NCBI GenBank assembly: GCA_028718945.1
Contig: JAQUKT010000001.1
Coordinates: 11,997-75,996 of the forward strand
Length of the DNA: 64,000 bases
Direction: 5' to 3'
DNA from: Actinomycetota bacterium
Lineage (GTDB): Bacteria > Actinomycetota > Geothermincolia > Fen-727 > JAQUKT01
Shown: positions 18,024-55,502 of the stretch, piece by piece
How the letters are laid out: each line of letters starts with the position of its first letter
Numbering within the stretch: the stretch's first letter is position 1
Notes under the pieces: generated by a model
Database searches by the model: none
What the model saw: the letters and a program-made list of their open reading frames with translations, nothing else
What the model was told of the DNA's origin: nothing
Position numbers and translations under genes: made by a program

Positions 18024-18064
18024 CTTTTAAGCTCCTGTGAACTTGTCAGTTCAATCCCTCCAAA

Positions 18065-20527: not shown

Positions 20528-20581
20528 CCGAGTTTCCTCCGGTTATCCCTTCCTCCTGTCTTCCTCCTGTTAAAGTTTCCT

Positions 20582-23350: not shown

Positions 23351-23485
23351 TTCCTACCTCTCCACAAGCAAACCCAAAAAATTATCGCTCGAATAATAAT
23401 AACGATTTTGACTCTCAAAGGATACTGGTTTTCCTCAAAAAAGCGTGAAATTCACATGGGTAAATGGAACCGGCACGAAGTGAAA

Positions 23486-24052
23486 TCAGAGGAAACTTGA
23501 AGGACTCGACTGGGAAAGTATTCTGTTTAGGGCAAAAAGACCTCTTTTCTGAGTGGATTTGACTGCACCAACTGATACACCCATAATCTCTGCAATCTGA
23601 GCGTTAGAAAGATTATCGATAAACTTGAGAACTATTACTTCGCGCTGGTTGTGAGTGAGTCTTTGAAGGGCAAGATAGAGTCTTTCACTATCGAGGTCTG
23701 CCATTGCAGTTTCCATTGGATTGCCTTTCGCAGCAGGAGTAGGCGACTGCTCGTCAATAGGAACATTCTCCCTTCTTGACTCACTTCTGAAAAAATCAAC
23801 AGCGAGATTGTGCGCAATTCTGAAAAGCCATGACGAAAATGATACATCACGAGTCTCGTAGTATTGAATATTCTCGAACGCTTTCAAGAAGGTCTGTCCT
23901 GTAAGGTCCTGTGCGTCATTCTGATTTCCAACCTTGTAATAAATATATCTGAATATCTGATCAACATATTCATCGTAAAGCTCCCCAAATGCCTCCGGGT
24001 CGCGTTCTTTTGCTCTCTTCACAAGGTTTTGAATAGCGCTCTCTCTGGACAT
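23486..24052 (-). CDS. ECF-type RNA polymerase sigma-70 family factor
   Basis: 188 aa. Region 2 (DLTGQTFLKAFENI...WLFRIAHNLAVDFFR) and region 4 HTH (NAQIAEIMGVSVGAVKSTQKRG). Confidence 0.85.
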   Translation of the reverse strand: MSRESAIQNLVKRAKERDPEAFGELYDEYVDQIFRYIYYKVGNQNDAQDLTGQTFLKAFENIQYYETRDVSFSSWLFRIAHNLAVDFFRSESRRENVPIDEQSPTPAAKGNPMETAMADLDSERLYLALQRLTHNQREVIVLKFIDNLSNAQIAEIMGVSVGAVKSTQKRGLFALNRILSQSSPSSFL

Positions 24053-30300: not shown

Positions 30301-32774
30301 CCGTTACCGGACACGAGGTCTAAGTCGTAAAGATTTGGGGTTGGCGGTCCAACCTGAGCGGGAGCCTGCCATACACCAGCGAGAAGCTGAACATAATAAC
30401 CATTTGCACCAACCGCGTATCCATTCGCGGCATCGGAAAGATAAACGGAATTCAAATCGGGGGTTGGGGCTCCAACCTGAGCGGGAGCCTGCCATGCACC
30501 AGCGAGAAGCTGAACATAATAACCATTTGCACCAACCGCGTATCCATTCGTGGCATCGGAAAGATAAACGGAATTCAAATCGGGGGTTGGGGCTCCAACC
30601 TGAGCGGGAGCCTGCCATCCACTAAGGTATTGAATTGTAATTCCATTTTCACCGACTACATATCCATTGTTAGAATCCACGAAATAGACTGAATTTAATT
30701 TTTCAGAAGTCCACGCCGTGGTGTTGAACTCAATGGAATAATTAGTGCCATCATAATGAATAATCGTTCCTCCACTTCCTACCCAGTAAGCCGTGCCATC
30801 GGGGAGAGAAAAAACATCCTCGAGGTCAACGAGGCTCCAGTGGGGAGTAGCAGAAGAACCATCGAGGGTCTGCCATACAGTTCCTCCCTCTCCAACAGCC
30901 CAGCCAACATCCTTGTTGAGAAAATCTACGGAGAGAAGATTTGTGGCACCAGGGGTTGAAGCGGGATTTCTATCCGTCCACGTGGCAGTTGCGGGAATGT
31001 GAGTCGCCTGCCTTATATGACCACCATCTCCAACCCAAGTAATGTAATAAGTTCCAGGACTTCCGCTATCCTCGACGATTGAGACATCCCTGTTTGAGAA
31101 AGCGCCATCAGCAACAGGATTCCACACCGTCGCGCCGCCATCATTCGTCCAGACCGCCGCCCCATTCTGCCCGACAGCGAATACATAATTCGTTCCATCT
31201 CCCCCAACCTCAACCGCACGCAGGTTCTCTGGAGTTCCAGAATCCTGAGCTTTCCAGGTATTCCCATCTCTCTTTATGATTGCTCCGCCGCCACCAACAT
31301 AGTACTCGATGTCTGCATCGGGTTTTGCCACATCGTAAATGTCAAAGGGACCCCAGGTAGTGCCATTCCTCGTCTGCCAGATACCACCATCCCAAGCCGT
31401 AGCAAACCAGATTCCCGTTGTTTTAGAGAAAGAGACATCAGTGAAATTTGTGGTTCCAACTCCACTCGCATTTGTCCAGTTTGCCCCTCCGTTCGATGTG
31501 TATGCCAGAGTTCCGGAAAGTCCGGCAACATAGCCGCTCGCAGCGCTCTCGAACTCAACTCCAAGCAAATCCTGAGCAGGAGGTGGACCAACAGGGGTAG
31601 ACCATGCAGCAGGAGTGCCACCGGGTGGCGCGTCAGTTGTGTAGAAAAGAGCGCCTCCATCGCCACAAGCCCATACGAGATAATTTCCGCTTCCGCCTGA
31701 ATCATTGTAAACAAAAACATCATTGAGATTTGCAGCAAGTGCGGGACCCGCATTCCAATTAGAGCCACCATCTGTGGTATAAAGATTCACATTGTTTTCG
31801 CCAACAGCCCAGCCATAGTTCGCATTTATGAAATGAATGCCATTCAAATTACTTGTTGTGGTGCTATTCTGAACGGTCCATGAAGAGCCATCATAGAATA
31901 GGATTAGCCCGCGCTGTCCGGCAATCCAGGTGTGTGTTGAATCAAGAGAAAAAACGGCATTTGCCCCGAAATCAGAACTCCACGTGGTTCCCCCATCAAC
32001 AGTGTGAAGAATCGTTCCATCTTTTCCTCCAACCCAGGCTTCATCTTGAGATATCGCAAAAACGGAATTGAGTCTTTTCGTTGTCCCGCTTGCCTGAAGG
32101 CTCCAGGTTGTGCCCCCATCATTCGTCGCGATAATCACGCCGCCGTCCCCGACTGCCCATCCATTGTTAGAGTCAGCAAATGAGACATCGAGTAGGGCCA
32201 TGCTCGACCAGGATGCTCCTCCATCCACAGTCTTCATCACGATTGGCGACCAGGTCGAGGGCTTTTCTAAATCAAGCATATTCGCGCCAACCACTATGGC
32301 TTCAGTGTCGCTCGGCGCGAATACATCAAAGAAAACATTGGTGGTTTCTCCCATATAAACTATGTTCCATGTCCCAACACCAGTTGAATCCGTACACTTT
32401 GATATCAATCCCGAATCTCCAACTGCATAGCCAAGATTGGGACTGCGAAAGTAAACGCCACGAATTGTCAATAGATGAAGGAAAGGATCGTCGCCGACCC
32501 TTTGCCCCGTCCAGGTTGTACCACCATCAGTTGTATGCCAGCAATCGTAGAAGGTGGTTCCATCCAGTGATTGCTGCGGTTGTCCAACCGCCCAGCCCTC
32601 AACTCCGCCGGGCAAGAAGAAAATGTCTTCAAAATGGCTTTCAATAAGATCCTCCCTTTGAGGAGACCATGTGCCAGCAGCGGAAGCCGGAGAGAAAGAA
32701 AGCAAAGCCAGCAAAGAAGCACACAAGACCAAAGACAACAATGAAGTCCTTCTAAACCTTCTAAATACCTTCAA
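24318..32774 (-). CDS. Giant secreted protein (2818 aa): signal peptide, multiple Ycf48/BNR-type beta-propeller regions, 7 IPT/TIG domains, 4 C-terminal ~105-aa repeats of unknown family
   Basis: N-terminal signal peptide ending SPASAAG. Dozens of T/VDGGxTW Asp-box-like motifs. IPT-like P-x-I-x-x-S-P-x-x-G-x-x-G-T-x-V-T-I-x-G-x-x-F-G units. Four repeats starting WYFAEGTTRxGFxEWICLxNP and ending GGHDVxGA. Confidence 0.8.
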   Translation of the reverse strand: MKVFRRFRRTSLLSLVLCASLLALLSFSPASAAGTWSPQREDLIESHFEDIFFLPGGVEGWAVGQPQQSLDGTTFYDCWHTTDGGTTWTGQRVGDDPFLHLLTIRGVYFRSPNLGYAVGDSGLISKCTDSTGVGTWNIVYMGETTNVFFDVFAPSDTEAIVVGANMLDLEKPSTWSPIVMKTVDGGASWSSMALLDVSFADSNNGWAVGDGGVIIATNDGGTTWSLQASGTTKRLNSVFAISQDEAWVGGKDGTILHTVDGGTTWSSDFGANAVFSLDSTHTWIAGQRGLILFYDGSSWTVQNSTTTSNLNGIHFINANYGWAVGENNVNLYTTDGGSNWNAGPALAANLNDVFVYNDSGGSGNYLVWACGDGGALFYTTDAPPGGTPAAWSTPVGPPPAQDLLGVEFESAASGYVAGLSGTLAYTSNGGANWTNASGVGTTNFTDVSFSKTTGIWFATAWDGGIWQTRNGTTWGPFDIYDVAKPDADIEYYVGGGGAIIKRDGNTWKAQDSGTPENLRAVEVGGDGTNYVFAVGQNGAAVWTNDGGATVWNPVADGAFSNRDVSIVEDSGSPGTYYITWVGDGGHIRQATHIPATATWTDRNPASTPGATNLLSVDFLNKDVGWAVGEGGTVWQTLDGSSATPHWSLVDLEDVFSLPDGTAYWVGSGGTIIHYDGTNYSIEFNTTAWTSEKLNSVYFVDSNNGYVVGENGITIQYLSGWQAPAQVGAPTPDLNSVYLSDATNGYAVGANGYYVQLLAGAWQAPAQVGAPTPDLNSVYLSDAANGYAVGANGYYVQLLAGVWQAPAQVGPPTPNLYDLDLVSGNGFAVGGSGTEGYRVPITGGSFGSPVSMDSGTRDLTGISFSSASLAFASGMNRTMWKYDSTGPGWTKISSLEGTDNLNGIDFDTASKYGWVVGNSGIVYLARNGLFTKENSSTTKNLESVSAVSSNNAFACGQDGTIVGRDGTWSVITSPTSNNLYGIDFTDASAGVIAGESRLMAWTNSGGSSWALYSGVQKTTNDFLALDFTDSSNGWICGQAGMLYRYLNGTVGPQTSGTSLELRGISMYSGPAGFAVGDGRLVISTSDGSTWNTLSVLQATNTIYDISFPTAIEGWFCGSSGFILHYNVAFQTQTSGTTEDLYGISLCNNGSNDTGSTVGSNGVVRFTNNNGANWNASSSGHTDDLFGVDIVSLTQGIACGENGRVIRSTNGGQNWADPAAPPSTANNLRGVEFGDSTNNYAWVVGDGGKVYGGTNNGDNWAEQTSQTNNRLNAVSALHDGVNYQCWAVGEVRTIIRSTDGNTWNTISEIPSPSALFASDFVDSSNFYAVGFEVGFEDSSRGIICHTTNGGITFNQELAAGIPPLYGIDAYDSNNVWAAGDSGTVLCWDGVTWNPQGAVPGTVNLRDISIDYNGAIPNFEGVTVGSDGNIYYTSDGGANWDAGSSFNRNDLRASWFESAFSRAFSSGDYGTIIGSTNKGANWNFLQGPANNLNGMSFADANNGIACGEKGVVLYTTDAGATWMPSDSVTDKNLNDVSMYLDGGVYRGIAVGDNATVRRTSNGGQTWSPATSPPVSNNLSSVDFIDSTHAWAVGDNGHIWISADSGDTWTEQESNPTANLRAVDFFDEECGVAVGGTAGSTESVRWTDDGGATWQTPANPPAGSVKINDVSMGGKSDVWAVGEGGSIWYSDDGGDNWVFQEGPVSDELFGVSFGAPGHSDTRNGLIVGASPAVTEPACALYTSNGGGTWGEIESATGVNRSLMGISSIWDTDRIKAYSCGSFGRIQVCSQSLAAPVITPPLVPGNGVTGTEVTINGSSFGAGQPSVNGHVYFGGETEASINTWTGTEIKAVVPNNAITGNVHVVHDGGSSNGVTFTVLPNITNVSPTQMSYGTAVTITGTGFGNDPGSGNRSTDTNNVKVNGGQIPDGSFTSWTRTEIKFTLPPDIEPGIGVPVTVTAGGKESAPPLNVNVIPKIEKLSPDSGKTGDEIEINGGNFGTSPLPYDPNNCVKMQKMDEDGNVSLEMVPEAFMVSWNNTNIKFKIPDDPAVFQPWTGPVRVLRNSSASTQDPVLSITPWISGTSTTTAKVGDSVTIDGSGFGEVQGANGKVYFNNVDSGTASTWGYNRIVVNVPENATSGQLKVQTLYGESNLIPFNVTPVIDWLSSSEGRVGDSVTINGTGFGASKGSNTVKFNGEPAQVEGWTSTKITVSVPAKATSGSVIVTVNDVESNQKSFKVLPKITSISPSSGIPGTTIVTINGFTFGETQGSSKVTFAGVDAGKAKSWSKTKIETRVPAAVTSGGVIVTTPSGQSNSVQFTAGPYISSVSPLNGPAGISVTVSGKNFGDEQGTSKVRFANVDAIDVESWSDSSVRAKVPMGAKTGNVTITTPVGTSNGIQFSVTLPKTFYFAEGTTRQGFQEFICLMNPNDTAASVTITYMLSEGPNQTHELEVSAKSRLTVRVEDVVGKEKDVSARVDSDKQIVAERPMYFNYNGVWTGGHDVMGAVGASKEWYFAEGNTRDEFEEWICLQNPSEHEAAVEIKYMLTGGGTRAQGVKVPAKSRRTISAKQFLGPGVDCAAKVTSDVGIVAERPMYFNYKNMWTGGHDCMGATSPSETWYFAEGTTRSGFDEWICLLNPGTYVADVKITYMLETGETKAQSLSVLGTSRVTVDVHGAVEREHDVSARITSSQPIIAERPIYFDYVGITGGHDVIGANSTASQWYFAEGTTMQGFQEWLSIQNPGDKEAEVRITYMLTGGENKEQKLAVPGHARVTVDVNGSIGWGKDAGAKVVALGEDNKGIIVERPMYFDFYGWTGGHDVIGFPLW
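30346..30627. repeat. Near-identical 123-bp tandem repeat (2 full + 1 partial copy) inside the giant gene
   Basis: Copies start at 30346, 30469 and 30592 with only a handful of mismatches. Each encodes the 41-aa unit WQAPAQVGAPTPDLNSVYLSDATNGYAVGANGYYVQLLAGA in frame. Confidence 0.85.
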
Positions 32775-33316
32775 TTCCTTACCTCCCTTGACCTAAGCTG
32801 CCCCATGAAAACCCTTTAATAAAACCGCACCAGAAAGATTTTTTGAACCTTGAATTGTTTGTTACGAGGCACCCCAAAAATTGAAAATCAGCTTGCATAT
32901 CTCATCTTCACACTTCTTAAGAAATCCCCGAACCCTGCCAGTACCTAATTATATAACAATTATCTAATAAATATTACGAAAAACAATCCCTCACGGATAC
33001 CAAGCCCTGCTCCTTCGATTCCCAATCCCAAAAATGCCTGAAGGTAAAATTCAACTTTTGTTTATTTCGGTTCTCGTCAACAATACCTTTAATTTCGCAT
33101 ACGATTCAACCTGTCTCACTTCTAAGTTTAGTAATCAATCCAAATTGAATGACTTAGATTCAAAGACTTACGACAATTCAGTTTGACCAAAACAAAACAT
33201 CGTGTTATATTTGCTTGTATTGCTGATTCGCTCAGAAGATTTTTTCGAATCAGCGTGATTGTCACCCTGTATTGTTTCTAAACCTGTTTCGATATGAGAG
33301 GGTCTAAACAAAAACT

Positions 33317-34096
33317 GTGATTGAGTGCGAAAACAATTATAGAATCTCAAACATCAGGGGTAAGGTTATTTCATTCACGGGCGGGAAAGGTGGTGTTGGA
33401 ACCACTACAATTCTCGGGGAAATCGCCTACTTGTTTTTCAAACTTGGAACAGAAACAGCATGCGTTGATTTCGATATCCACAACGGAAGTCTTCACATGA
33501 AATTCGACATAACTCTCACAGACAGGATACACACGGTTTCTGACCTCATCCCGCTTGTTGGGGAACTCACGCCAAGAACTATTAGCAATGCGGTCTCAAG
33601 CACAACGAGGGGAGTAAGAATCCTTCCAAGGCCGGAATCGATCGAACAGGCATCTTTGTTATCATCATCGCACATTGAAGCGATGATAAAGTCATTTTCA
33701 TTAACATATCCTCTCGTGTTGATCGATACCCCCGCAGGAGCAAACCCGATAGCCGTTTCAACCTGCTCCGTATCGGATATAACCGTTCTAATAACGACTC
33801 CTGAGATACCATCAATCATAGGGACCAAAAGGCTTCTTGATACTTTTTCCTCTTCAAAAACGCCCTTTCCTCTATTAGTCGTAAACCGCTCTTTTGTCGG
33901 GAAAGACGCCCTCACTCTTGGTGAAATAGAGTCATTCCTGGGCATGCACACATCGGTCATCATTGCCGAAGACACTTTCAATACAAGGCGCCTGAGCGAG
34001 GAAGGGAGATTCCTTTCAGACGAAAAGACACCCGTTTCTCGCGGGATAAGAGCCCTCCTCAAAGAACTTTCATCCCTGCTCCAAATTCATTCATGA
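33317..34096 (+). CDS. tadZ: Tad pilus assembly ATPase-like protein TadZ/CpaE (MinD/ParA superfamily, ATPase domain only)
   Basis: Deviant Walker A GGKGGVGTTT. 259 aa with no receiver-like N-domain. Confidence 0.7.
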   Translation: MIECENNYRISNIRGKVISFTGGKGGVGTTTILGEIAYLFFKLGTETACVDFDIHNGSLHMKFDITLTDRIHTVSDLIPLVGELTPRTISNAVSSTTRGVRILPRPESIEQASLLSSSHIEAMIKSFSLTYPLVLIDTPAGANPIAVSTCSVSDITVLITTPEIPSIIGTKRLLDTFSSSKTPFPLLVVNRSFVGKDALTLGEIESFLGMHTSVIIAEDTFNTRRLSEEGRFLSDEKTPVSRGIRALLKELSSLLQIHS

Positions 34097-34186
34097 GTTA
34101 CGAAAATAATAGGTGACAAAACACCAATTGACACTCGCTTCAGTGGCTGCTAAAATTTTGCTTGTATTGCTTCTAAGGGAAGTTAA

Positions 34187-35401
34187 ATGGAAGAAACCGC
34201 AAAAGCAAAGTTCGCTCATTCTTTTAGCGCATCAACAAGAGAAGAAGTCCGCAAGAGAGTGCTCCTCGACTTATCAGCATCTGGCAAGAATTTTCATGAA
34301 AAAGAAGAAATCGAAAAAAGGGTAGAAACTGTCCTACTTTCAATGGGGCTTCTGCTTCCTTCAAGCCAGGTAGAAACGCTTTGTTGCGAACTTCATGATG
34401 AGCTCTTTGGAATGGGACCACTTGAGCCTTTCTTCAAAGACCCGGAAATCTCCGAAATCATGGTCAACGGCGCATCAAAAACATTCATTGAAAAAAGAGG
34501 AGTAATCGAACAGGCGAATATCAGATTTGAAAATGAGGCGAAAATCCTCGAACTCGTTCGGCGGGTGCTCGCTCCGCTGAACCTCAGGCTCGACGAGACC
34601 TCACCCATGGTGGACGCAAGGCTTCCGGATGGCTCCCGCCTGAACGCGATAATCCCCCCGCTCTGCCTGAATGGACCAACAGTAACCATCAGACGTTTCA
34701 GGGTTCAGTCATTCACCAAAAAAGAACTTGTCGAACTCGGAACTTTCCCATCCGAAATTGCATCTTTCCTGGAGAAAAGTGTCATAGAAAAAGCGAACAT
34801 TCTGATATCCGGCGGCACCTCGAGCGGAAAAACAACCCTCCTAAACGTTCTTTCATCCCTTATACCGAAACAGGAAAGACTAATAACAATCGAGGATGCC
34901 GCTGAGCTAAGGATTGAACATCCTCATGTGATATCCCTTGAAAGCAGACCGCCAAGCATCGAGGGAAAGGGTGAGATTACTGTTCGAGACCTTGTTAGAA
35001 ATGCCCTGCGAATGAGACCCGATAGGATAATAGTAGGAGAAGTAAGGGGTCCCGAAGCCTTGGATATGCTCCAGGCAATGAATACTGGTCACCCCGGTTC
35101 CCTTTCAACTGCTCATGCAAACTCACCGATTGACCTCGTAAGCAGACTCGAAACCATGGTTCTAACGTCGGGGGTCAACCTCAACATCGATGCGGTAAGA
35201 AGGCAAATTGCCTCCGCGCTCGACCTAATAATCCACATGGAGCGCCTGAGAGATGGAAGGCGCGTTGTTTCCGAAATAGTGCGGGTTTCTCAAGGAAGTG
35301 ATTCATCAGTGAGATTCGATCCGATTTTCCTTGACGCCAAAGGCAGGAATAGGAATGCAGAAGACGATTCCTCCACTCTCAGGAAGGAAAAAATCTTATG
35401 A
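34187..35401 (+). CDS. tadA: Tad secretion ATPase TadA/CpaF (VirB11 family)
   Basis: Walker [15 protein letters not shown], Asp box, Walker B, His box ([13 protein letters not shown]). 404 aa. Confidence 0.85.
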
Positions 35402-35476
35402 AAGAGCATAAGTTTGACTTCAATTGAAACGCAAGAATAGTTAGCAACTTTTTCGACTCTAACGAGAGGAGAGACT

Positions 35477-36409
35477 TTGAAAATCGTAATTTCATTTGTG
35501 TTCTTCCTCCTTGCTGTTTATTTCCTTGGAAGAAGGCAAATCATTGAAAGTCATGCAAAAGCGCGCTCAAGACTTACGAATCAACTCGGAAAAAGGAACG
35601 AGAAAAACAAAGCGTGGTATCTTCGAACAATAAATCTCCTGGTAGGCACTTTCCACAAGCATGCAGAGAAAAAGGGGGTCAAGAAGCTTTTTGAAGATTC
35701 GGGCCTTAAGTTTTCCTTCCGCACTTTCATCGTTACCTGGATTGCAATAATAATATTTGTGCCCTCATTTGCATTCGTGACGACAAGAAACATTCTCCTT
35801 TTTTTCATTGCTCTTTTTGCCTCCTACGGTGTCCCGTTGCGCGCTTTGAAGCACCTCGCGCAAAGAGAAAGGAGAAAAGCAAGAGAGCAATGTGAGAAGT
35901 TCGCCGGCGATATTGCTATCCATCTAAAATGCGGGGTACCGCTGAAAGATTCAGTAATGCTTTCCGCGAAAGGTACCTGTTCGCCTCTTTGCGACATGGT
36001 TGAAGAATTCGCGTCGAGAGTAAATCTTGGCGAAAGACCGGAGAGCGTTTTTCTTGAACTATCCGAACTACTCGAAGATGAGGACCTTATGTTAATCGCC
36101 CACTCAGCGATAATTTCAGCGGAAACAGGAGCCAACGCTCGCGAGGTGATGAACGCCATTGGTGAAGCTATCAGGGAAAGGGCAGCAATAAGAAGAGAGC
36201 TCCTTTCCCAAACCGTTCAGGCAAGAATGTCAAGCAAAATCGTCGCCGCACTTCCATTCCTCTTCCTAACAATAACAGCGGGCGTATCAGGTGAGGCAAT
36301 ATCAACTCTTTTTGGCACTCTCCCAGGTCTGATTATGGTTGCGGTCGGCATTTTGCTGGATGTTGTGGGCTTGCTATGGATGAGGAAAATACTAAATGTC
36401 AAGGTTTAG
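35477..36409 (+). CDS. tadB: Tad pilus inner-membrane platform protein TadB (T2SSF domain)
   Basis: 310-aa membrane protein with T2SSF-like topology, immediately downstream of tadA. Confidence 0.7.
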   Translation: MKIVISFVFFLLAVYFLGRRQIIESHAKARSRLTNQLGKRNEKNKAWYLRTINLLVGTFHKHAEKKGVKKLFEDSGLKFSFRTFIVTWIAIIIFVPSFAFVTTRNILLFFIALFASYGVPLRALKHLAQRERRKAREQCEKFAGDIAIHLKCGVPLKDSVMLSAKGTCSPLCDMVEEFASRVNLGERPESVFLELSELLEDEDLMLIAHSAIISAETGANAREVMNAIGEAIRERAAIRRELLSQTVQARMSSKIVAALPFLFLTITAGVSGEAISTLFGTLPGLIMVAVGILLDVVGLLWMRKILNVKV

Positions 36410-36412
36410 CAT

Positions 36413-37312
36413 GTGAGTTTAATAGTTCCCAACGAAAGGAGAAAAATGGAACTACTCGCCGGTTCAATGCTTTTTGCTTTGGCTCTCTTCTTTTTAGGCA
36501 AAGGGCTCTCAAGAAACGCGATAGCCGGAAAAAGACTGGAAAGGCTCCAGGGCAAAGAGAAAGTAAAGGAAGAGAAAAATCACAGAAAACTATCTTTCTG
36601 GGGAGTGATGGACGCTGTATCAAAGATTGTGCCAGAAAGAACAAGAAAAATGTTGATATATGATATTGAAATTCCAGAAGATGCGAAAAATCTGAGCACC
36701 AATCAGCTCCTTGGAATCAGAATAACTGCAATTGCAATCGTGCCACTTGTGACCCTGAGAATAGCGGGATTTGGAGTCGGAGGAATTCTTTTGTCCATTG
36801 CAAGTGGAATCTCATCATTTTTCGTCCCAAACATCATTATTAGGAAGAAAAGAAATGAGCATCTAAACAGAGCTAAAGCGGCTCTCCCTCAATCGGTGGA
36901 CCTGCTATATGCCTATGTCTTAGGAGGAAAAAATCTCCGTCAGGCATTCCAGGGAATGGCTAATTTTTCACCCGAACCACTTGGCCATTATCTGAAAGCT
37001 GCGTCAAGGGAAATCGAACTTGGCTCATCCCTCAAAGAAGCTTTCGAAAGGCTTGAAATCAATGTTCCCATTCCCGAACTATCAACTCTTCTCTCAAGCA
37101 TTTTGGAAGCGGAAAATAAGGGATTCTCTGTTTCCGACACCCTCTCAGTTCTTTCCCGTGAAATAAGGCTAAAAAGACGCGATGAATTACGGTCAAAAAT
37201 TTCAAAGGCTCCATTGAAACTCCTTGCCCCACTTGTTTTCTTGATCCTGCCAGCCTCAATTATCCTTACAGTAGGGCCAGTCTTTCTTGTAGCACTAAGG
37301 CGGGGCATTTGA
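36413..37312 (+). CDS. tadC: Tad pilus inner-membrane platform protein TadC (T2SSF domain)
   Basis: 299-aa paralogous membrane protein following tadB. Confidence 0.7.
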   Translation: MSLIVPNERRKMELLAGSMLFALALFFLGKGLSRNAIAGKRLERLQGKEKVKEEKNHRKLSFWGVMDAVSKIVPERTRKMLIYDIEIPEDAKNLSTNQLLGIRITAIAIVPLVTLRIAGFGVGGILLSIASGISSFFVPNIIIRKKRNEHLNRAKAALPQSVDLLYAYVLGGKNLRQAFQGMANFSPEPLGHYLKAASREIELGSSLKEAFERLEINVPIPELSTLLSSILEAENKGFSVSDTLSVLSREIRLKRRDELRSKISKAPLKLLAPLVFLILPASIILTVGPVFLVALRRGI

Positions 37313-37448
37313 TTCCTCTTTAAGAATGTCACATAGACAACATTGATAATAATTAACGGATAATAATCTTGACTAATCACTACCCTAATGCTATGCTTGT
37401 ATTGCTTGTTGTAATGTTCATTTGAAGTCAGGAAAGGAGGAGAATTCA

Positions 37449-37628
37449 ATGAACGAACTGGAAAGATTCCTCAGAGAAGAGGAAGCGCAAACAACAGCGG
37501 AGTATGCACTGGTAATCTTGGGCGCCGCAGCCGTTGCCGGGGTTCTTATTACCTGGGTTGGCGGTGGCGATACAATCAAGAAGTTTTTCAAGAAAATATT
37601 CGACAAACTCATTGAAGCAGTCGGGTAA
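37449..37628 (+). CDS. flp: Flp-family type IVb pilin
   Basis: SD GGAGG precedes ATG at 37449. The product MNELERFLREEEAQTTAEYALVILGAAAVAGVLI matches the Flp class-III leader plus TAEYALV core. Confidence 0.8.
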   Translation: MNELERFLREEEAQTTAEYALVILGAAAVAGVLITWVGGGDTIKKFFKKIFDKLIEAVG

Positions 37629-37630
37629 AG

Positions 37631-38143
37631 ATGCTCCAGTTAATATTGCTCATTGCCTTCAGCGGTGCCTCGATTTACTTCGACTTGAAATTTGGGCGGG
37701 TCCCCAATTTACTCTGTGGTGCTGGTCTTGCTACAGGACTCGCCCTATCGATTGCGACAAAAGGATTGAGCGGTCTTGAAGAAAGCATTATTGGTTCTGC
37801 TCTCGGCTTTGTAATCCTCATTATTCCATTTCTTCTGCACATGGTTGGCGGAGGCGACGTCAAATTTCTTTCCGCCGCGGGGGCAATCGTGGGTTGGAGA
37901 GCTCTATGGCCCTCCTTCCTTTTAGGCTCATTTATGGGAGGTGTAATAGCACTTCTTCTTATGGTATGGAAAGACCGGTCCTTGTTTCCCTTGAGAAAAA
38001 GAATTGTGCTCATCCTCAATGGAGTTTGGCATCAGCCTGAATCAATGAAGCAAACAACTCGTGTGCCATTGATTCCTTACGCACTGCCACTTTCGCTCGG
38101 GCTGCTCCTTTTCAATTCAATGTACAAGATAGTGGGAAGGTGA
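37631..38143 (+). CDS. tadV: Prepilin peptidase TadV/CpaA (A24 family)
   Basis: 170-aa polytopic membrane protein with conserved Asp-containing motifs (YFDLKFGRVPN...GGGDVKF). Confidence 0.75.
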   Translation: MLQLILLIAFSGASIYFDLKFGRVPNLLCGAGLATGLALSIATKGLSGLEESIIGSALGFVILIIPFLLHMVGGGDVKFLSAAGAIVGWRALWPSFLLGSFMGGVIALLLMVWKDRSLFPLRKRIVLILNGVWHQPESMKQTTRVPLIPYALPLSLGLLLFNSMYKIVGR

Positions 38144-38150
38144 CTAACTG

Positions 38151-38549
38151 ATGCTATTTCGCAGACTTGTTCGTCACTCGCGCGGCCAGGCTACAGTAGA
38201 GTTTGTGATGGTGCTTCCCGTGCTCCTGATTGTAATAGCCGCGGCGTTTCAGACTACCCTGGCATTGAACTGCTGTCTCATGGTTTCATCTGCCTCGAGA
38301 GAAGGAGCAAGAAGAGGCGCTGAGACAGGCGATTCTGAGGAAGCCAAAAACGCGGCTCTTGATGCAGCAAGCGGGCTCCCGGGGGAGAAACCAAACATCG
38401 ATGTTGATTTTCCCTACGGACACTCAAAGGGGCAACCAATCAGGGTGAGGGTAAGCCATAGGATGCCCATTTTAATTCCCGGGCTCGAACACATCATTCC
38501 AGAAGTCAGTTTCACAAAATCTACATCAATGTCGCTGGAAAGAGAGTAA
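38151..38549 (+). CDS. tadE: TadE-like pseudopilin
   Basis: N-terminal GQATVEFVMVLPVLLIVIAAAFQ TadE-type motif. 132 aa. Confidence 0.7.
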   Translation: MLFRRLVRHSRGQATVEFVMVLPVLLIVIAAAFQTTLALNCCLMVSSASREGARRGAETGDSEEAKNAALDAASGLPGEKPNIDVDFPYGHSKGQPIRVRVSHRMPILIPGLEHIIPEVSFTKSTSMSLERE

Positions 38550-38554
38550 ATGCA

Positions 38555-39382
38555 ATGTTTAAGCGGTTTATCAGAAAAGATGAAGGAAGCATTACGCCTG
38601 TTATGTTCTGCGCGCTTGCTCTTATCATTCTTCTATGCGTTTTCATAGCAGACTTCGGGATGTTTATCCTGACAATGCATAGAGCACAGGATGCCGCTGA
38701 TGCCGCTGCTCTTTCAGCCGTCCAGGAATCCTTTCCACTTTTCTCATCGGGCTCTAATCCCGAAACGGTTGCAAAAAGATATTCCCGTGAAAATGGTGCC
38801 TCGCTGGAAACGCTCGAGGTTTTTTCAGGAGGAACAAAGGCACAGGTTGAGGTATCGGTCAAGGTCAAATCGCTAATCCTTGAGAAGTTTGGAATCACGC
38901 CCGAAGAAGTCAGAGCAAAAGCGGCGGCGGAAGTTGATATGGAAGCACTTATCGCAAGCAATGATATATGGCTTGTTGACCCATCAATCATACGTGAGAT
39001 AGTTGCTTCGCTCGGACCTCTTTCAAATCACCAGTCCAGTGCAACGATGGTAGTCCTCCTTGCCCTTCAGCATCTTGGGGAACCCTATGTCTCTGGTGCC
39101 CAGGGTCCAAATAAGTTTGATTGCAGCGGTTTAGTCTATTATGTATATGCGCAAGTAGGAATTCGCCTGCCAAGAGTTACCTTTGACCAGGTTCGTGTCG
39201 GTAAAGCAGTATCCTTGGAAAATCTTGAGCCAGGAGACCTCGTCTTCTTCAGGAAAAACGGTCATGTGGGCATATACATAGGTGCTGGTCAGTTCATACA
39301 CGCGCCACGAACTGGAGATGTTGTCAAAATATCACCACTTTCAAAAAGAAAAGACATATCGGCTTGCCGAAGAATCATTTGA
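38555..39382 (+). CDS. TadG-like pilus assembly protein fused to C-terminal NlpC/P60 (C40) peptidoglycan endopeptidase domain
   Basis: N-terminal TM plus Tad motif (RAQDAADAAALSAVQ). C-terminal DCSGLVYYVYAQVG...GDLVFF...HVGIYIG...FIHAP Cys-His-His catalytic arrangement. Confidence 0.7.
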   Translation: MFKRFIRKDEGSITPVMFCALALIILLCVFIADFGMFILTMHRAQDAADAAALSAVQESFPLFSSGSNPETVAKRYSRENGASLETLEVFSGGTKAQVEVSVKVKSLILEKFGITPEEVRAKAAAEVDMEALIASNDIWLVDPSIIREIVASLGPLSNHQSSATMVVLLALQHLGEPYVSGAQGPNKFDCSGLVYYVYAQVGIRLPRVTFDQVRVGKAVSLENLEPGDLVFFRKNGHVGIYIGAGQFIHAPRTGDVVKISPLSKRKDISACRRII

Positions 39383-39402: not shown

Positions 39403-41100
39403 CTAAACAACAACCCTCAGTACTTCCTCTACTGAAGTTACCCCCTCCCTGCACTTCTCGAAGCCATCCATGCGCATTGTTTTCATGCCCTGCTCAACTG
39501 CAACCTTTTTGATATCGGCCGTGCTCGCTTCTTCGAGGGTGAGCTGCTCTATCTCAGCACTCGTAAGCATTATCTCAACAAGAGCAATCCTTCCTTTGTA
39601 ACCGGTCCCATTGCAACGAGGACATCCCCCCTTTTTCGGTCGGTAAAGAACGATATCCTCACCGTCATCACAGGGGAAACCCCATCTTTCGAGTAGTCCT
39701 CTCGACGGCTCGTATGGCTCCTTGCAGGCACAAAGTCTCCTGCCAAGCCTCTGAGCGAGGGTTGCCACAATTCCAGAGGCTGTGAGGAAGGGCTCAATTC
39801 CCATCTCTGTGAGCCGGGTAATAGCTCCCGGAGCATCATTGGTATGCAGGGTGCTGAAAACAAGGTGTCCTGTGAGCGCTGACTCAATTGCAATCTGAGC
39901 GGTCTCGAGGTCTCTAATCTCACCGATCATTATTATGTCCGGTGAAGTTCTCAAAATCGAACGCAGGGCATTTGCGAAAGTGAGACCCGCCTTGGTATTT
40001 ATCTGAATCTGGTTTATTCCTGAAAGTCTGTACTCGACCGGGTCCTCAACAGTAGTGATATTTTTTGTTTCATCATTCAAAACATTCAGAGTGGCATAAA
40101 GAGTCGTGGACTTCCCGCTACCAGTTGGACCGGTTACTAAGATTGCACCATTAGGTCTCCTGAACGAATTTTCATACTTTCCTAAAGTCTCGCCATCATA
40201 ACCCAAGTCTGAGAGCCTCAAAAGGATACTTGATTTGTCAAGGATTCGGAAGACTATCTTTTCGCCGAAAACTGTCGGAAGCACTGCCACGCGGAAATCT
40301 ATAGGCTTCCCGTCCACTACCCTTTCATAATGACCATCCTGTGGTATTCTTTTCTCGGCAATGTTCAAATCCGACATAATTTTCAGTCGAGAAGATAGGG
40401 CTGGAAATGTTTTGATTGGCAGGCTTTTCATATCGTGAAGAACACCATCAACCCTGTATCTGATAACCAACTCCTTTTCCTGGGGGTCGAAATGAATATC
40501 GCTTGCTCCGCTCTTTACTGCCTCACCAATCACAAAACTTACAAATCTCACTATAGGTGCATCATCCACCATGATGCCAAGTGCCTCTGCGATTTCGCTG
40601 TCGTCATAAGCTGTCTCCTCAGCTGATAGAATTTCCTGCACTTCTGTAGCTTCCCCTGCTTCCCTGTAGTATGTCCTGATAGCATCTTCGATATCGGTTT
40701 TGGTAGCCACTACGGGTTTAACAGGATGACCGGTATACATCTTTACATCATCCAGGGCAAACAAGTTTGTAGGATCAGCCATTGCCACAATGAGGATAGT
40801 GTCATCAAAAGCAATCGGTATAGTGAGGTACCTGCTCGCAATTTTCTCATCCAGAAGGGCAACAGCCGACATGTCAACGTGGTAGGACGAAAGGTCAATA
40901 AATTCAAGCCCTAAGTGATTCGCAATGACTTCCGTCATTTTCTCCTCTGTGATAAAGCCCATATCTATCAGATTTCGAGAAAGTGACTTGCCCGTTTCCT
41001 TTTTTCTTTCAAGAGCCTCAATTAGCTGTTCCTCGGCTACTACTCCTTCATCTATAAGGAACTGGGTAAGTGATTTTGATTTTTTCGCTGCTTTTGCCAA
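39403..41100 (-). CDS. Type IV pilus/T2SS assembly ATPase PilB/GspE family
   Basis: N-terminal GSPII_E_N-like domain, Walker A GPTGSGKSTTLYA, tetracysteine motif CxxC...CxxC, 565 aa. Confidence 0.85.
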   Translation of the reverse strand: MAKAAKKSKSLTQFLIDEGVVAEEQLIEALERKKETGKSLSRNLIDMGFITEEKMTEVIANHLGLEFIDLSSYHVDMSAVALLDEKIASRYLTIPIAFDDTILIVAMADPTNLFALDDVKMYTGHPVKPVVATKTDIEDAIRTYYREAGEATEVQEILSAEETAYDDSEIAEALGIMVDDAPIVRFVSFVIGEAVKSGASDIHFDPQEKELVIRYRVDGVLHDMKSLPIKTFPALSSRLKIMSDLNIAEKRIPQDGHYERVVDGKPIDFRVAVLPTVFGEKIVFRILDKSSILLRLSDLGYDGETLGKYENSFRRPNGAILVTGPTGSGKSTTLYATLNVLNDETKNITTVEDPVEYRLSGINQIQINTKAGLTFANALRSILRTSPDIIMIGEIRDLETAQIAIESALTGHLVFSTLHTNDAPGAITRLTEMGIEPFLTASGIVATLAQRLGRRLCACKEPYEPSRGLLERWGFPCDDGEDIVLYRPKKGGCPRCNGTGYKGRIALVEIMLTSAEIEQLTLEEASTADIKKVAVEQGMKTMRMDGFEKCREGVTSVEEVLRVVV

Positions 41101-44511: not shown

Positions 44512-44943
44512 CTACTTGAAAACGAACAGGTTCAGAAAAAGAAATACGAAAAACCCGACTGTAGCGCTGAAAACAAGCGATCCAATAGCTTTTCTCGTCC
44601 CCTCATTTATGCGAGTCATTACGAAGTCAAAGCCAAGCGCGGAAAATATCTCAAGCGCCCCAATTACAATCATCGGAATACAAATTATGCCCTTCCCGGG
44701 AAACCTATTCCACAACCAGACACCCATGAGCACAAGGAAAAAGCCCGAAAGGCAGAGCCCGAAGAATACCGTAAGCTGCTTCTTTGTATGGCAATTTCTT
44801 TTGCGTTGCAGCTCTTGCTGTTTTGCCTGCTTGTACTCAAAGGATTCACGAAAGGCTTTGTTTCTCTTTTCAAGTAAGCGTACGTATCCGGAAAAACCCC
44901 TCTTGAAAGTTTTAGATATCCTGTTTCCATTTGAACTGTTCAT
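44512..44943 (-). CDS. Small membrane protein (hypothetical), translationally coupled to upstream M23 gene
   Basis: 143 aa, basic N-terminus, 2-3 TM helices. ATGA overlap with the 44940-46580 gene. Confidence 0.45.
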   Translation of the reverse strand: MNSSNGNRISKTFKRGFSGYVRLLEKRNKAFRESFEYKQAKQQELQRKRNCHTKKQLTVFFGLCLSGFFLVLMGVWLWNRFPGKGIICIPMIVIGALEIFSALGFDFVMTRINEGTRKAIGSLVFSATVGFFVFLFLNLFVFK

Positions 44944-46580
44944 TCTATTACCTCCTTCGTTCCGACAACCTTTTCAGCACCTTCCTGAACTCCCGTTTTC
45001 ATTCCCCTGGATAAAATCTTGGAAGCGAGCCTTGATACAATTTCCTTCCCAAACCTTCCAAGTTTTTCTCTGAAGAAACGGAATTTAGACAAGAAGCCTC
45101 TAATCCCTTCACCGCCGAAAGCAAGAGAAAGAACTCCCATAAGAGCCCCTGTGGAAAACGCCGCGAAGCAATTAGCCCAAGTGACCGATGCTCCGCTCAA
45201 TTTACAGGCTGTTACGCTTACAATAACGCCAATTCCACCAGTTAGCCCAATGTGGGCAAGCCTTGTTGCGAATTTTATCCCCCCTTCTCTCATCAAGGTG
45301 ACCATACCCTCCTTCACAACCCTGCTTATTCCTCCCGAAAAGAAGCCTATGCAGGCAGCAATAGCAATTGAAGTCCAGCTTGGCCTGCTCCAGGTAATGC
45401 CGCACTTGAGTAGTTCAAATCCAAGAGAAAAAGACGCACTTTTCAGCCCCTCCTTCATGAACCCAAAAAGAGTGAGCTTTAAGAATCCCTGAGCAATCGC
45501 TCCAGAAAGAACCCCAACGCAAACAACGAATAATCCTGCCGAGGCGCCTGCCGTCAGGCCCGCGATGAAGCACGATAGGAAAATAGAGTTGCCGGGATGT
45601 GTTGCCGCAACATAAAAAGAAAAACCAATTGATGAAAGAGCAGCAACAGCAGCTGCTATCAGCGCAAATGTTGCGCTAACAGGAAGGAAAATCACCGCTA
45701 CGACAACTATACCTATTGCCACCACCGCAGCGCAAATTGCAGCAACCGTAGCCTGAACCCACCTGTTCCTCCAAACCCACAAGACTGCGGTTTTCGCTTT
45801 CCTTCCAACGAAACAAAGCCCGCTCCATATCCCCGAACCAGCAGCTTTGAGCCCCCTCAAACATAATGAACAACCGGAGCGGAGGGCATCATAAACCCCC
45901 TTGAAGGGACTCAAGCCCTTTGAGACAAAGGTCTTAAACCCATTCTTTATCCGGGTGAAGAAACCTGGACCACCACTTGAAGGCTCCGAACCGCCTACGG
46001 GATTCCTCACGGCTCTCTCGACAGGACACAACCTTATGAAGTCGCTTGCGTCTATTCCAGACATCAGGAGCCTTGGATCAATCGGAACACCATTCACAGA
46101 CGCGCTGAAATGAAGATGGCTTTGTGGACTGGAGTCGTCTCGTGTGCCGTAAACGGTCCCGATAACCTGACCGCGCCTAACCTTTTTGCCTTTCGAAACA
46201 TCTACGCGCTCGAGATCAAGATATGTTGTCTTTGCTCCACCGGAGTGCGCGATTGACACGAATCTTCCTCTCGGCAGTTCTCCTGTCCAGAGAACCTCTC
46301 CGTCGCCAGCCGATTTCACAGGAGTACCCTTTATGGCGGCAATATCAATGCCCTGGTGTCCACCCTCACCATAAGGTCCTGTTGGTTTCTCAAAGCCCCT
46401 GACTATTCGACCCCTCAAAGGCCATGAAAAGCCTGAAGGTGAAGCACTTGCGGGGACATTCGAGAACAAGAAAAGACAGGGAAGGGTAAGGAAAGCAAGC
46501 AAAATGCAAATTATTGTTTCGCGTTTTGTTTTACTAAAAATCATCTGAAAGTATCTTTCATGCTGGACTTTTCGCGGCAA
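44940..46580 (-). CDS. M23 family metallopeptidase fused to a C-terminal polytopic membrane domain
   Basis: Signal/TM, then M23 motifs (HQGIDIAA, GDGEV, HLHF), then about 300 aa of Gly/Ala-rich TM helices. Confidence 0.65.
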   Translation of the reverse strand: MPRKVQHERYFQMIFSKTKRETIICILLAFLTLPCLFLFSNVPASASPSGFSWPLRGRIVRGFEKPTGPYGEGGHQGIDIAAIKGTPVKSAGDGEVLWTGELPRGRFVSIAHSGGAKTTYLDLERVDVSKGKKVRRGQVIGTVYGTRDDSSPQSHLHFSASVNGVPIDPRLLMSGIDASDFIRLCPVERAVRNPVGGSEPSSGGPGFFTRIKNGFKTFVSKGLSPFKGVYDALRSGCSLCLRGLKAAGSGIWSGLCFVGRKAKTAVLWVWRNRWVQATVAAICAAVVAIGIVVVAVIFLPVSATFALIAAAVAALSSIGFSFYVAATHPGNSIFLSCFIAGLTAGASAGLFVVCVGVLSGAIAQGFLKLTLFGFMKEGLKSASFSLGFELLKCGITWSRPSWTSIAIAACIGFFSGGISRVVKEGMVTLMREGGIKFATRLAHIGLTGGIGVIVSVTACKLSGASVTWANCFAAFSTGALMGVLSLAFGGEGIRGFLSKFRFFREKLGRFGKEIVSRLASKILSRGMKTGVQEGAEKVVGTKEVIE

Positions 46581-46858
46581 AAACTATCTTAAGAAGCATA
46601 GCAAGCAAATTATAACCGACCAATTCAAGCAAGTCAACCAAAACCTACCTTTTTATCAAATTGAACAAAAAATTTCATCCGATAGAAGGATATTTTCATG
46701 AAAGGCTTTACTTCAAAGATTTTGTTTTCTATGATACTTGCCAAACCTGACGCAGGGCTCGGAATACCAGCATGGAAAAAACAAGGATTGCCTGTAATAG
46801 TACTCAAGGAATAAGTTTAATCTTGAATCGCATCTGAGGAATATGAAGAGGAGGAAAT

Positions 46859-55238: not shown

Positions 55239-55502
55239 TTGAAACTAAAAAACGTTATGGAAGACCTCGTTGCGGAGTACGTTGATGAGGCAATTTCAAA
55301 CGATAACGACTTCTGCAAATGCGAGCGGTGCCGTCTTGACGTAATCGCGCTTGCCCTCAACAAACTCAAGCCAAAATATGTTGTCACAGAGAAAGGATAC
55401 GCTTACGCGCGCCTTGGCGAACTTCAGGCTCAGTTCCGAACAGATATGATTGTCGCAGTCAAAAAGGCGATGGACATCGTCAAGAAAAAAGCACGCCATT
55501 GA
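55239..55502 (+). CDS. comFB: ComFB-family late competence development protein
   Basis: 87 aa with the 4-Cys pattern (CKCERC...) and LVAEYVDEAI N-terminus typical of ComFB. Confidence 0.6.
   Translation: MKLKNVMEDLVAEYVDEAISNDNDFCKCERCRLDVIALALNKLKPKYVVTEKGYAYARLGELQAQFRTDMIVAVKKAMDIVKKKARH

Follow-up and report, generated by a model that had tools for sequence, protein, structure and literature searches.

A 13-nt motif, TGCTTGTATTGCT, here called the Tad box, lies on the core promoters of tadZ, tadA and flp in a Tad pilus locus, and is kept across an uncultured actinobacterial lineage and restricted to it. We propose that it is the operator of a lineage-specific regulator, probably a repressor, of a regulon of pilus and cell-wall-hydrolase genes, and we give this combined reading a probability of about 0.6. 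The DNA analysed (the window) is a stretch of 64 kb from a MAG of an uncultured member of the Actinomycetota.

Position of the box in the window

The window contains three exact matches to TGCTTGTATTGCT, all on the plus strand (33212-33224, 34159-34171 and 37394-37406), while 100 dinucleotide-preserving shuffles contain none, so that none is expected by chance. This bears out the original prediction that perfect copies mark the 5' ends of tadZ, tadA and flp. The distances it gave to the genes also hold, and the edges of the copies needed to be moved by 1-3 nt: there are 92 nt between the end of the motif and the GTG of tadZ (33317), 15 nt to the ATG of tadA (34187) and 42 nt to the ATG of flp (37449). 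The promoters, motif copies and genes of the locus are as follows.

33183-33188, plus strand: -35 of P_tadZ (TTGACC), followed by a 17-nt spacer and a TG-extended -10 (TATATT) at 33206-33211; consensus scan, 10/12 with TG
33212..33224, plus strand: motif copy 1, TGCTTGTATTGCT, exact match, directly 3' of the P_tadZ -10 and spanning the predicted start site
33317-34096, plus strand: tadZ, ParA/MinD-like (Pfam)
34128-34133, plus strand: -35 of P_tadA (TTGACA), followed by a 17-nt spacer and a TG-extended -10 (TAAAAT) at 34151-34156; consensus scan, 11/12 with TG
34159..34171, plus strand: motif copy 2, TGCTTGTATTGCT, exact match, 2 bases 3' of the P_tadA -10
34187-35401, plus strand: tadA/cpaF, CpaF/TadA (Pfam)
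35477-36409, plus strand: tadB, T2SSF (Pfam)
36413-37312, plus strand: tadC, T2SSF (Pfam)
37369-37374, plus strand: -35 of P_flp (TTGACT), followed by a 17-nt spacer and a TG-extended -10 (TATGCT) at 37392-37397; consensus scan, 9/12 with TG
37394..37411, plus strand: motif copy 3 with an extra unit, TGCTTGTAT-TGCTTGTTG, exact match and sequence reading
37449-37628, plus strand: flp, DUF4244/Flp pilin (Pfam, NCBIfam)
37631-38143, plus strand: prepilin peptidase (tadV), A24 (Pfam, NCBIfam)
38151-38549, plus strand: tadE (Pfam, NCBIfam)
38555-39382, plus strand: tadG-NlpC/P60 fusion (Pfam, NCBIfam)

A consensus scan places every exact copy against or over the -10 of a near-consensus sigma-70-type promoter, TTGACn-17-TGnTAnnnT. 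P_tadA, which sits in the gap between tadZ and tadA, is the top sigma-70 match within 30-42 kb, and together with P_tadZ it makes up the two best matches in 12 kb. The box itself consists of tandem 9-bp units, TGCTTGnnn-TGCT. At flp there are two and a half TGCTTGnnn units, the first overlapping the -10 and the second starting 5 nt 3' of it, as in the closest relative, L082; the direct repeat of the half-site that had been predicted here is the second TGCTTGT, at 37403-37409. A repeat finder returns the copies as a discrete 15-nt family (D4) whose flanks are unrelated, and the copies are therefore not a duplicated cassette.

A degenerate fourth copy lies outside the Tad locus, at the gene for a secreted peptidase.

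46637-46632, minus strand: -35 of P_M23 (TTGACT), followed by a 17-nt spacer and a -10 (TATAAT) at 46614-46609; sequence reading
46619..46631, minus strand: spacer copy TGCTTGAATTGGT, 2-mismatch match, directly 3' of the P_M23 -35 hexamer
46595..46607, minus strand: degenerate copy 4, TGCTTGCTATGCT, 3-mismatch match, PWM score 16.9
44940..46580, minus strand: secreted M23 peptidoglycan endopeptidase (Pfam PF01551, 1.2e-23; NCBIfam; sequence), with a likely start at the ATG at 46544

Copy 4 begins one base 3' of the P_M23 -10, in the same layout as the Tad copies, with the spacer copy TGCTTGAATTGGT 24 nt upstream of it. Neither this copy nor the contact of every copy with a sigma-70-like -10 had been remarked on in the original prediction.

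P_tadZ, P_tadA, P_flp and P_M23 all have the hexamers and the 17 +/- 1 bp spacing of housekeeping sigma-70/SigA promoters. Judged by their sequence, the core promoters are ordinary ones of this type, with no special locus-specific promoter class. The suggestion of locus-specific promoters thus stands in so far as three separate promoters inside the Tad locus are marked, and falls in so far as the box is also found at the M23 gene and, in relatives, at a cpaB-like gene. It had further been suggested that the motif allows high flp transcription relative to the machinery genes. This is not supported: tadZ, tadA and flp all have the same box on their promoters, which argues for co-regulation and not for differential expression; any excess of flp would stem from flp having its own promoter. 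The predicted regulon would comprise tadZ, tadA-tadB-tadC, flp-tadV-tadE-tadG(P60) and the M23 endopeptidase, 7 kb away.

Conservation and specificity of the box

Eight syntenic Tad loci were retrieved through the TadA protein, and hence independently of the motif. Their TadA proteins are 57-70% identical, and they come from both AT-rich and GC-rich genomes. Far from being absent from these orthologous loci, the box follows the -10 of the flp promoter in all eight and that of the tadA promoter in seven (the exception, L172, has a weak spacer-type copy only) and upstream of tadZ in five (L082, L084, L085, L087 and L169), and the flanks and spacers have diverged around it. That its position is kept at TadA identities down to 57%, and at strongly different GC contents, requires purifying selection.

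This conservation bears on the idea that the copies are sites for recombination or phase variation, or functionless relics of promoter duplication. Site-specific inversion is frequent at the pilus loci of other bacteria, and duplication of a promoter cassette can yield short exact direct repeats. We nevertheless find either origin scarcely credible, since the relic would have no cassette around it and would have to have escaped the divergence of its surroundings, while the three Tad copies are direct, not inverted, with no promoter flanked by them. There is no recombinase gene among the neighbouring genes, and an invertible-promoter switch like fimS was rejected on these grounds, the copies being direct repeats within promoters.

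A metagenome scan for the whole architecture of promoter and box gave 80 matches, and in about 46 of these the gene that follows is tadZ, tadA, flp, cpaB-like or M23. Most of these promoters were picked by a pattern that fixes the architecture, so that independent evidence comes only from the bases that the pattern leaves free, from the identity of the genes and from the loci found through a protein. In the logo of 48 non-redundant promoters, two such free positions are conserved all the same: an A stands at position 7 in 42, and a T precedes the motif in 31. The 5' half (tTGCTT) is the most conserved part, the information content drops to about 0 directly after base 13, and the same sigma-70 -35 and -10 elements are seen. 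In metagenomes, 9 non-redundant promoters of M23 orthologues have the box, which in relatives also marks a stand-alone cpaB-like gene.

The box is also specific. A PWM scan found 2 marginal matches in about 925 kb around distant TadA genes, compared with 19 in 125 kb of this lineage. Within the lineage loci it is not a common sequence unrelated to pilus genes: 80 of the 106 unique sites immediately precede tadZ, tadA, flp, cpaB or M23 genes.

A second copy is found in 38/48 of the non-redundant promoters, compared with 0/48 for a downstream control window of equal size. Its start is 5' of the main copy, at a distance of about 25 bp (in the spacer) or about 33 bp (over the -35). In most relatives a second copy fills the -35/-10 spacer or overlaps the -35; two loci (L170 and L171) have two perfect copies, one on each side of the -10, and tadA of L138 has three units. 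The three Tad promoters of the window have a single copy each, and a clamp made from two sites is therefore not universal.

A putative operator and its alternatives

Among the possibilities raised in the original prediction, a regulator binding site explains these data best: the box is kept in orthologous loci, and pilus genes are strongly enriched 3' of the architecture in metagenomes. It is conserved at orthologous promoters with diverged flanks, it marks a coherent gene set and is rare elsewhere, and it has an internal repeat symmetry that suits an oligomeric binder. We are fairly confident that it is a DNA operator bound by a protein. In the mechanism that we propose, the box would be built into the core of near-consensus housekeeping (sigma-70/SigA-type) promoters, where it begins one base 3' of the -10 and spans roughly -5 to +8 relative to the predicted start of transcription. 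The boxes would be bound head-to-tail by a sequence-specific DNA-binding protein that is peculiar to the lineage and encoded away from the locus, and this protein, when present on both sides of the -10, would block either RNA polymerase binding or open-complex formation. Four transcription units (tadZ; tadA-tadB-tadC; flp-tadV-tadE-tadG(P60); the M23 endopeptidase) would in this way come under one switch, joined by the cpaB-like gene in relatives. That the protein represses is suggested by the geometry, and we favour this sign somewhat over activation: the promoters match the consensus so closely that an activator should be unnecessary, and the spacer and +1 are places where repressors typically bind.

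With transcription predicted to begin 6-9 nt 3' of the -10, and thus within the box, the mRNAs of the regulon would share the 5'-terminal sequence GUAUUGCU, the 3' half of the motif. An RNA-binding protein, small RNA or RNase could recognise it and control stability or translation. A CTCTCC tract resembling an anti-Shine-Dalgarno sequence comes after the box in GC-rich relatives (23/48 leaders, compared with 1.9% of background windows), and predicted folds often pair it with the SD, making RNA-level control of these leaders plausible. As an account of the box itself, action on the RNA is nonetheless highly unlikely. No plausible start would place the 5' half, the most conserved part, within the transcript; nothing is conserved past base 13, which leaves no shared structure; and full copies lie within the -35/-10 spacer, which is not transcribed, so that recognition is at the DNA level. 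Rfam has no match within 32-38 kb or near 46.6 kb, the leaders in the window are no more stably folded than shuffled sequence (z = -0.7 to +1.3), and a cis-regulatory RNA or riboswitch leader was rejected. The sole Rfam match in the window is a Moco riboswitch at 13414-13532.

The gap between the -10 and the box is 1 nt in 10/16 promoters of the window and four syntenic loci (L082, L084, L085 and L087), and in 45/48 promoters of the logo, a set largely selected with that gap. With a place so nearly fixed, the box could alternatively be read together with, or by, RNA polymerase. It would then be a positive or intrinsic promoter element that boosts or times expression, seen by the holoenzyme as an unusual discriminator or initially transcribed region or through a lineage-specific sigma or RNAP-associated factor, or else bound by an activator that contacts the polymerase from a downstream or spacer position. 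Throughout the clade, the Tad locus is syntenic with a BldN-like ECF sigma factor that has anti-sigma-like neighbours, which fits such an element. We consider it unlikely, however, because the -35, the 17-bp spacer and the TG-extended -10 are already near the housekeeping consensus, leaving extra recognition unneeded, because other strong sigma-70-like promoters in the window have no box (for example 5' of rpsF, at about 55039 on the minus strand), and because the offset varies (-4/+5 at flp in the window, +5 at flp in L082). ECF sigmas, moreover, are without regions 1.2 and 3, and their promoters are bipartite and of other sequence, with a -35 (..AAC) and a -10 (CGT..) about 16-17 bp apart and no extended -10. 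A promoter dependent on the BldN-like factor was rejected, as there is no conserved partner element 16-17 bp 3' of the box (information content about 0) and TG-extended sigma-70 elements are present instead. It is quite unlikely that the TGCTTGnnn units flanking the -10 form a new core-promoter module, read by a lineage-specific RNAP-associated factor or an unusual sigma-domain protein. If they did, there would be a dedicated promoter class for pilus and cell-wall remodelling in deep-branching uncultured Actinomycetota (Geothermincolia and relatives), into which the syntenic pair of BldN-like ECF sigma and anti-sigma would feed.

Genes for a cognate regulator were sought near the boxes. In the window and the loci examined, no transcription-factor gene is conserved adjoining the Tad, M23 or cpaB loci, and in the loci studied cpaB, tadZ and M23 have no HTH gene beside them. 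There is no AbrB/MraZ-like ORF in the window or any Tad locus examined, and no CtsR- or MraZ-type regulator gene in the window.

Relation to known systems and significance

As a motif the Tad box is new, and its kind is a familiar one. CtsR operators, at the clp genes of Firmicutes, are tandem heptad direct repeats overlapping the -35, -10 or +1. Like the proposed Tad operator they are non-palindromic, occupy the core or the start site of strong sigma-A promoters and define a small regulon of their own; they differ in sequence and period (GGTCAAA-NAN-GGTCAAA, 10 bp against 9 bp for the Tad box) and in controlling proteases rather than a pilus and a cell-wall hydrolase. MraZ and regulators of the AbrB superfamily also recognise short repeated units in tandem, the MraZ-type repeat being TGGGN with a 10-bp period. 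A CtsR- or MraZ-type operator was rejected, since the repeat sequence and the 9-bp period differ and the regulator gene is absent from the window; the likeness is functional only. A pattern scan also found a 9-bp tandem TGCTTGGnA directly 3' of the -10 at two VapB(AbrB-type)-VapC toxin-antitoxin loci (L140 and L165), where the selecting pattern fixed both motif and position, so that these serve as an analogy only.

The proposed control of several separate Tad/Flp-locus promoters by one DNA-binding regulator, including a dedicated pilin promoter, is shared with PprB, which controls the tad/flp locus of Pseudomonas aeruginosa, and CtrA, which controls pilA/cpa in Caulobacter. These are, however, activators whose binding sites, unrelated in sequence, are at the -35 or farther upstream, whereas the Tad box is found within a consensus core promoter and just 3' of it, in a monoderm actinobacterium. 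In the Tad-like competence pilus locus of Micrococcus luteus, the HTH_17 protein Mlut_14660 adjoins cpaB/cpaE, and a dedicated DNA-binding repressor was proposed, with no binding motif given (PMC8467076). That system is likewise an actinobacterial Tad-type pilus with a stand-alone cpaB-like gene in its gene set; it differs in its HTH gene next to cpaB/cpaE, where the loci studied here have none.

To our knowledge, the regulation of Tad/Flp pili in monoderms, and in Actinomycetota particularly, is largely undescribed. These pili drive adhesion, biofilm formation and, in Micrococcus, DNA uptake. The box offers a sequence-defined handle on their control in a lineage known from metagenomes only, and could be used as bait to find the regulator (DNA-affinity methods, DAP-seq). 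The regulon that it defines, with three pilus units, the M23 endopeptidase and a cpaB-like gene, implies that cell-wall remodelling is co-expressed with pilus assembly, and tandem direct repeats on both sides of a -10 would be a natural and compact way to build a strong promoter that can be switched tightly. Annotation also profits from the box, which points out true promoters and wrongly called start codons, for example that of tadA in L085.

Boxed promoters of the Tad locus

Pfam confirmed the gene calls at the Tad locus, the principal ones being as follows.

Genes of the Tad locus identified by Pfam
33317-34096, TadZ, ParA/MinD-like
34187-35401, CpaF/TadA
35477-36409, TadB
36413-37312, TadC
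37449-37628, Flp pilin, DUF4244

The locus also contains, again by Pfam, an A24 prepilin peptidase, TadE and a TadG-NlpC/P60 fusion. The 13-mer TGCTTGTATTGCT, here called the Tad box, has exactly three copies in the window of 64 kb, all of them on the + strand, and none of 100 dinucleotide-preserving shuffles of the window held even one copy. This bears out the original prediction of three exact motif copies that are improbable by chance. The distances proposed there from motif to tadZ, tadA and flp are right, and the extra TGCTTGT claimed at flp is indeed present in the sequence.

A repeat finder isolates the copies as a discrete 15-nt family with unrelated flanks, which marks a short element rather than the duplication of a cassette. 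It could be supposed that the box is a recombination site or the relic of a duplication, but the unrelated flanks speak against this rival too, as do the direct-repeat form of the copies, the lack of a recombinase nearby and the depth of conservation. With a period of 9 bp (TGCTTGnnn-TGCT), the box repeats in tandem and in direct orientation and is not a palindrome; the site at flp extends to two and a half 9-bp units.

A consensus scan shows that each of the three copies is embedded in a sigma-70-type promoter with a TG extension, and the tadA and tadZ promoters are the top two consensus matches in 12 kb. A relaxed motif search found a further, minus-strand box cluster near 46.6 kb. This boxed promoter lies upstream of the gene for a secreted M23 peptidoglycan endopeptidase, and has an architecture like that of tadZ, tadA and flp, with one degenerate box a base past the -10 and a second in the spacer.

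Box copies and boxed promoters in the window
33212-33224, + strand, exact box copy, tadZ promoter: TTGACC-17-TATATT (10/12 to consensus), ending at 33211, directly before the box
34159-34171, + strand, exact box copy, tadA promoter: TTGACA-17-TAAAAT (11/12 to consensus), ending at 34156, two bases before the box
37394-37406, + strand, exact box copy, flp promoter: TTGACT-17-TATGCT, with the -10 at 37392-37397 overlapping the box
near 46.6 kb, - strand, M23 promoter: TTGACT-TGCTTGAATTGGT-cggt-TATAAT-t-TGCTTGCTATGCT

The pilus has links to two peptidoglycan hydrolases, the box-bearing M23 peptidase (44940-46580, -) and the TadG-like pseudopilin with its fused NlpC/P60 domain (38555-39382, +), a fusion that is kept in all relatives. 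The gene next after that of the M23 peptidase encodes a 143-aa membrane protein (44512-44943). It is worth adding that the tadZ leader starts with a hairpin with a 9-bp stem (GCUGAUUCG...CGAAUCAGC; 33222-33254, +), the 5' arm of which overlaps the last three box bases; taken as a whole, the leader has no significant fold (z = -0.7).

Conservation and specificity of the Tad box

The TadA of the window matches, without any difference, a protein of an NCBI MAG labelled Actinomycetota. No TadA above about 60% identity was found among GTDB representative genomes, and the exact 13-mer is absent from 80 loci around TadA genes of these representatives. Given that no close orthologue exists there, relatives were reached through a large protein collection. 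Eight syntenic loci (TadA 57-70% identity; handles L082/L083, L084, L085/L086, L087/L088, L169, L170, L171 and L172) were retrieved by protein, independently of the motif; L169 is from Candidatus Geothermincolia. They have their gene order in common, and often also the flanking genes, namely those for a giant BNR/TIG protein, a BldN-like ECF sigma, a PilB-MshEN ATPase and an AMP-binding enzyme.

At flp, all eight loci have the box just past the promoter -10; at tadA, seven have it there, the exception being L172, which has only a weak spacer-type copy. Upstream of tadZ it is present in five of the eight. Its position is kept in AT-rich and GC-rich genomes, with the spacers and flanks diverged. 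In L170 and L171, the most distant loci, the -10 stands between two perfect copies, as in TTGAC-TGCTTGTATTGCTT-gcca-TATAA-TGCTTGTATTGCTT; these double boxes are found at tadA and flp, tadZ has no box at all, and a block for biotin carboxylase, oxaloacetate decarboxylase, BioY and BirA lies between tadC and flp. In another locus, L138, three consecutive 9-bp units (TGCTTGATT-TGCTTGATT-TGCTTCTCC) follow the -10 upstream of tadA, so the number of units can expand. The annotated tadA ATG of L085 (7001) and L086 (4274) falls within the Tad box (TAGGAT-t-ATGCTTGTATTGCT), and for that reason the start codon is almost certainly mis-called.

A logo of 48 non-redundant promoters shows preferences at positions left free by the search pattern: A at box position 7 (42/48), T at position 6 (31/48) and T at the base before the box (31/48). 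Information content falls to about zero right past box base 13. The gap from -10 to box is 1 nt in 45 of the 48, a set largely selected by the pattern, and in 10 of 16 promoters from the window, L082, L084, L085 and L087. A second copy lies upstream in 38 of the 48, starting about 25 bp (in the spacer) or about 33 bp (over the -35) away; an equal-sized downstream window contains one in 0/48.

In 125 kb (the window and four syntenic loci) a PWM built from 15 sites gave 19 matches; the 925 kb surrounding distant TadA genes gave two marginal ones, both outside promoter context. A metagenome scan for the whole architecture, TTGACN{17,19}TANNATNTGCTTGNNNTGCT, matched at least 80 stretches. Blastx and ORF inspection placed about 46 of the 80 listed matches upstream of tadZ, tadA, flp-tadV, cpaB/rcpC-like or M23 genes, with 9-10 cases among the matches listed of an M23 orthologous to that of the window. 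The remaining 34 or so of the 80 listed are chance matches in coding sequence, too short to classify or without assignment; off-target examples among them are an Fe-S protein gene, a eukaryotic retroelement and sites within coding regions. Across the lineage loci as a whole the PWM marks 106 unique sites, of which 80 are directly upstream of the tadZ, tadA, flp, cpaB or M23 classes; 40 of these sites lie outside the selection by the scan pattern, and their layout is unchanged. In the searchable literature the 13-mer is absent except in unrelated PCR primers. On comparative grounds it is well supported that the Tad box is a previously undescribed putative regulon motif of uncultured Actinomycetota.

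Mode of action

Full copies lie in the untranscribed spacer, and in the main copy the half that is conserved best lies upstream of any plausible transcription start, which means that recognition must be at the DNA level. A role for the box in RNA is very unlikely: the region has no Rfam match, and the leaders in the window fold no better than shuffled sequence.

In GC-rich relatives, 23 of the 48 non-redundant leaders have an anti-Shine-Dalgarno-like CTCTCC/CCTCTCC tract 2-40 nt after the box, the tract being found in 1.9% of background windows. Leaders of flp (10/14) and M23 (7/9) have it most often, and it occurs in L084, L085, L090, L098, L104, L125, L127, L142, L154, L172 and others; it is absent from the four leaders of the window. 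Several predicted folds pair it with the Shine-Dalgarno sequence, which suggests a further, translational layer.

The core promoters are near the housekeeping-sigma consensus and should therefore be intrinsically strong, and the spacer interior and the +1 region are classical places for a repressor to bind. Together these features favour an operator for a repressing regulator. We put the probability that the Tad box is a protein-bound DNA operator at about three in four, and for the bound protein we lean, rather less firmly, towards a repressor. A sequence-specific regulator would bind the box units head-to-tail and repress four transcription units together (tadZ, tadABC, flp-tadV-tadE-tadG and M23), with cpaB joining the set in relatives. 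Because the M23 endopeptidase appears to be co-regulated and NlpC/P60 is fused to TadG, this suggests that peptidoglycan remodelling may be coupled to pilus assembly in this monoderm lineage.

The main alternative is that the box is an intrinsic or positive promoter element, a reading that gains from the tight phasing of box to -10 and from the synteny of the BldN-like ECF sigma with the Tad locus, but is countered by other strong promoters in the window that lack a box, by the varying offset at flp and by the lack of an ECF-style partner element. An ECF/BldN promoter as such is rejected, the bipartite partner element being absent from the logo. As an operator, the Tad box would act in the manner of the direct-repeat operators that overlap promoters and serve CtsR or MraZ-type regulators, and it resembles in its logic PprB in Pseudomonas, where one regulator governs several tad promoters. 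In sequence and regulator it matches none of CtsR, MraZ-type proteins and PprB.

Candidate regulators and neighbouring genes

Pfam and NCBIfam searches of essentially all window ORFs, with a small-ORF survey of the gaps, found no conserved co-localised DNA-binding gene, and ORF clustering over 42 lineage loci found no conserved neighbouring one. Recurrent small-ORF "families" proved to be antisense artefacts of flp and repeat proteins.

The only regulator-type ORFs in the window
1739-2176, - strand, PadR-like regulator beside an ABC-2 transporter, with no link to the box
23486-24052, - strand, BldN-like ECF sigma (TIGR02952 at 176 bits, below the 206 cutoff)
55239-55502, + strand, small ComFB-like ORF adjoining the rpsF-ssb-rpsR-rplI-dnaB cluster, with no link to the box

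The sigma gene is followed by those of three large proteins (block 15507-24052, -), two of which cluster as paralogues (820 and 922 aa). Both gave weak HTH_69 matches, probably spurious because the 922-aa protein, the sole one translated, has a TM segment, repeats of about 30 aa and an anti-sigma-like look. Throughout the clade, L084, L085, L087 and L172 included, the sigma gene and the repeat-protein family keep their synteny with the Tad locus; the block may form a sigma/anti-sigma module with a link to surface structures.

MshEN is a c-di-GMP-binding fold in other systems. Here it forms part of a PilB-type ATPase (39403-41100, -), convergent to the Tad operon and conserved beside it together with the AMP-binding enzyme (41209-42711); the ATPase gene has no Tad box.

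In M. luteus, an HTH_17 protein encoded next to cpaB was proposed as repressor (PMC8467076), whereas the cpaB neighbourhoods here contain no DNA-binding gene, the neighbours being ThiF, a small membrane protein and an LCP enzyme. VapB(AbrB-type)-VapC(PIN) toxin-antitoxin loci were found in other organisms (L140, 60-120; L165, 1431-1500; also L132), and in L140 and L165 a 9-bp tandem TGCTTGGnA lies directly past a sigma-70 -10. The L165 pair sits as an insertion between leuA and leuC. The tandem hints that AbrB-superfamily proteins might read such 9-bp repeats, by analogy only since both matches were selected by the scan pattern itself. An AbrB/VapB-type regulator has no homologue in the window or any Tad locus.

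Divergent from tadZ is the gene for a giant 2818-aa protein with BNR, IPT/TIG and DUF5719 domains (24318-32774, -), the position of which is conserved in the closest relatives (L082 and L169). One possibility is a surface adhesin with ties to the pilus locus; there is no Tad box on its side of the intergenic region. Elsewhere in the window, a Moco (molybdenum cofactor) riboswitch (13414-13532, -; 67 bits, E = 5e-14) lies upstream of a molybdate-type ABC transporter (12391-13122, 11632-12273 and 10497-11672) and moeA, moaA and moaC.
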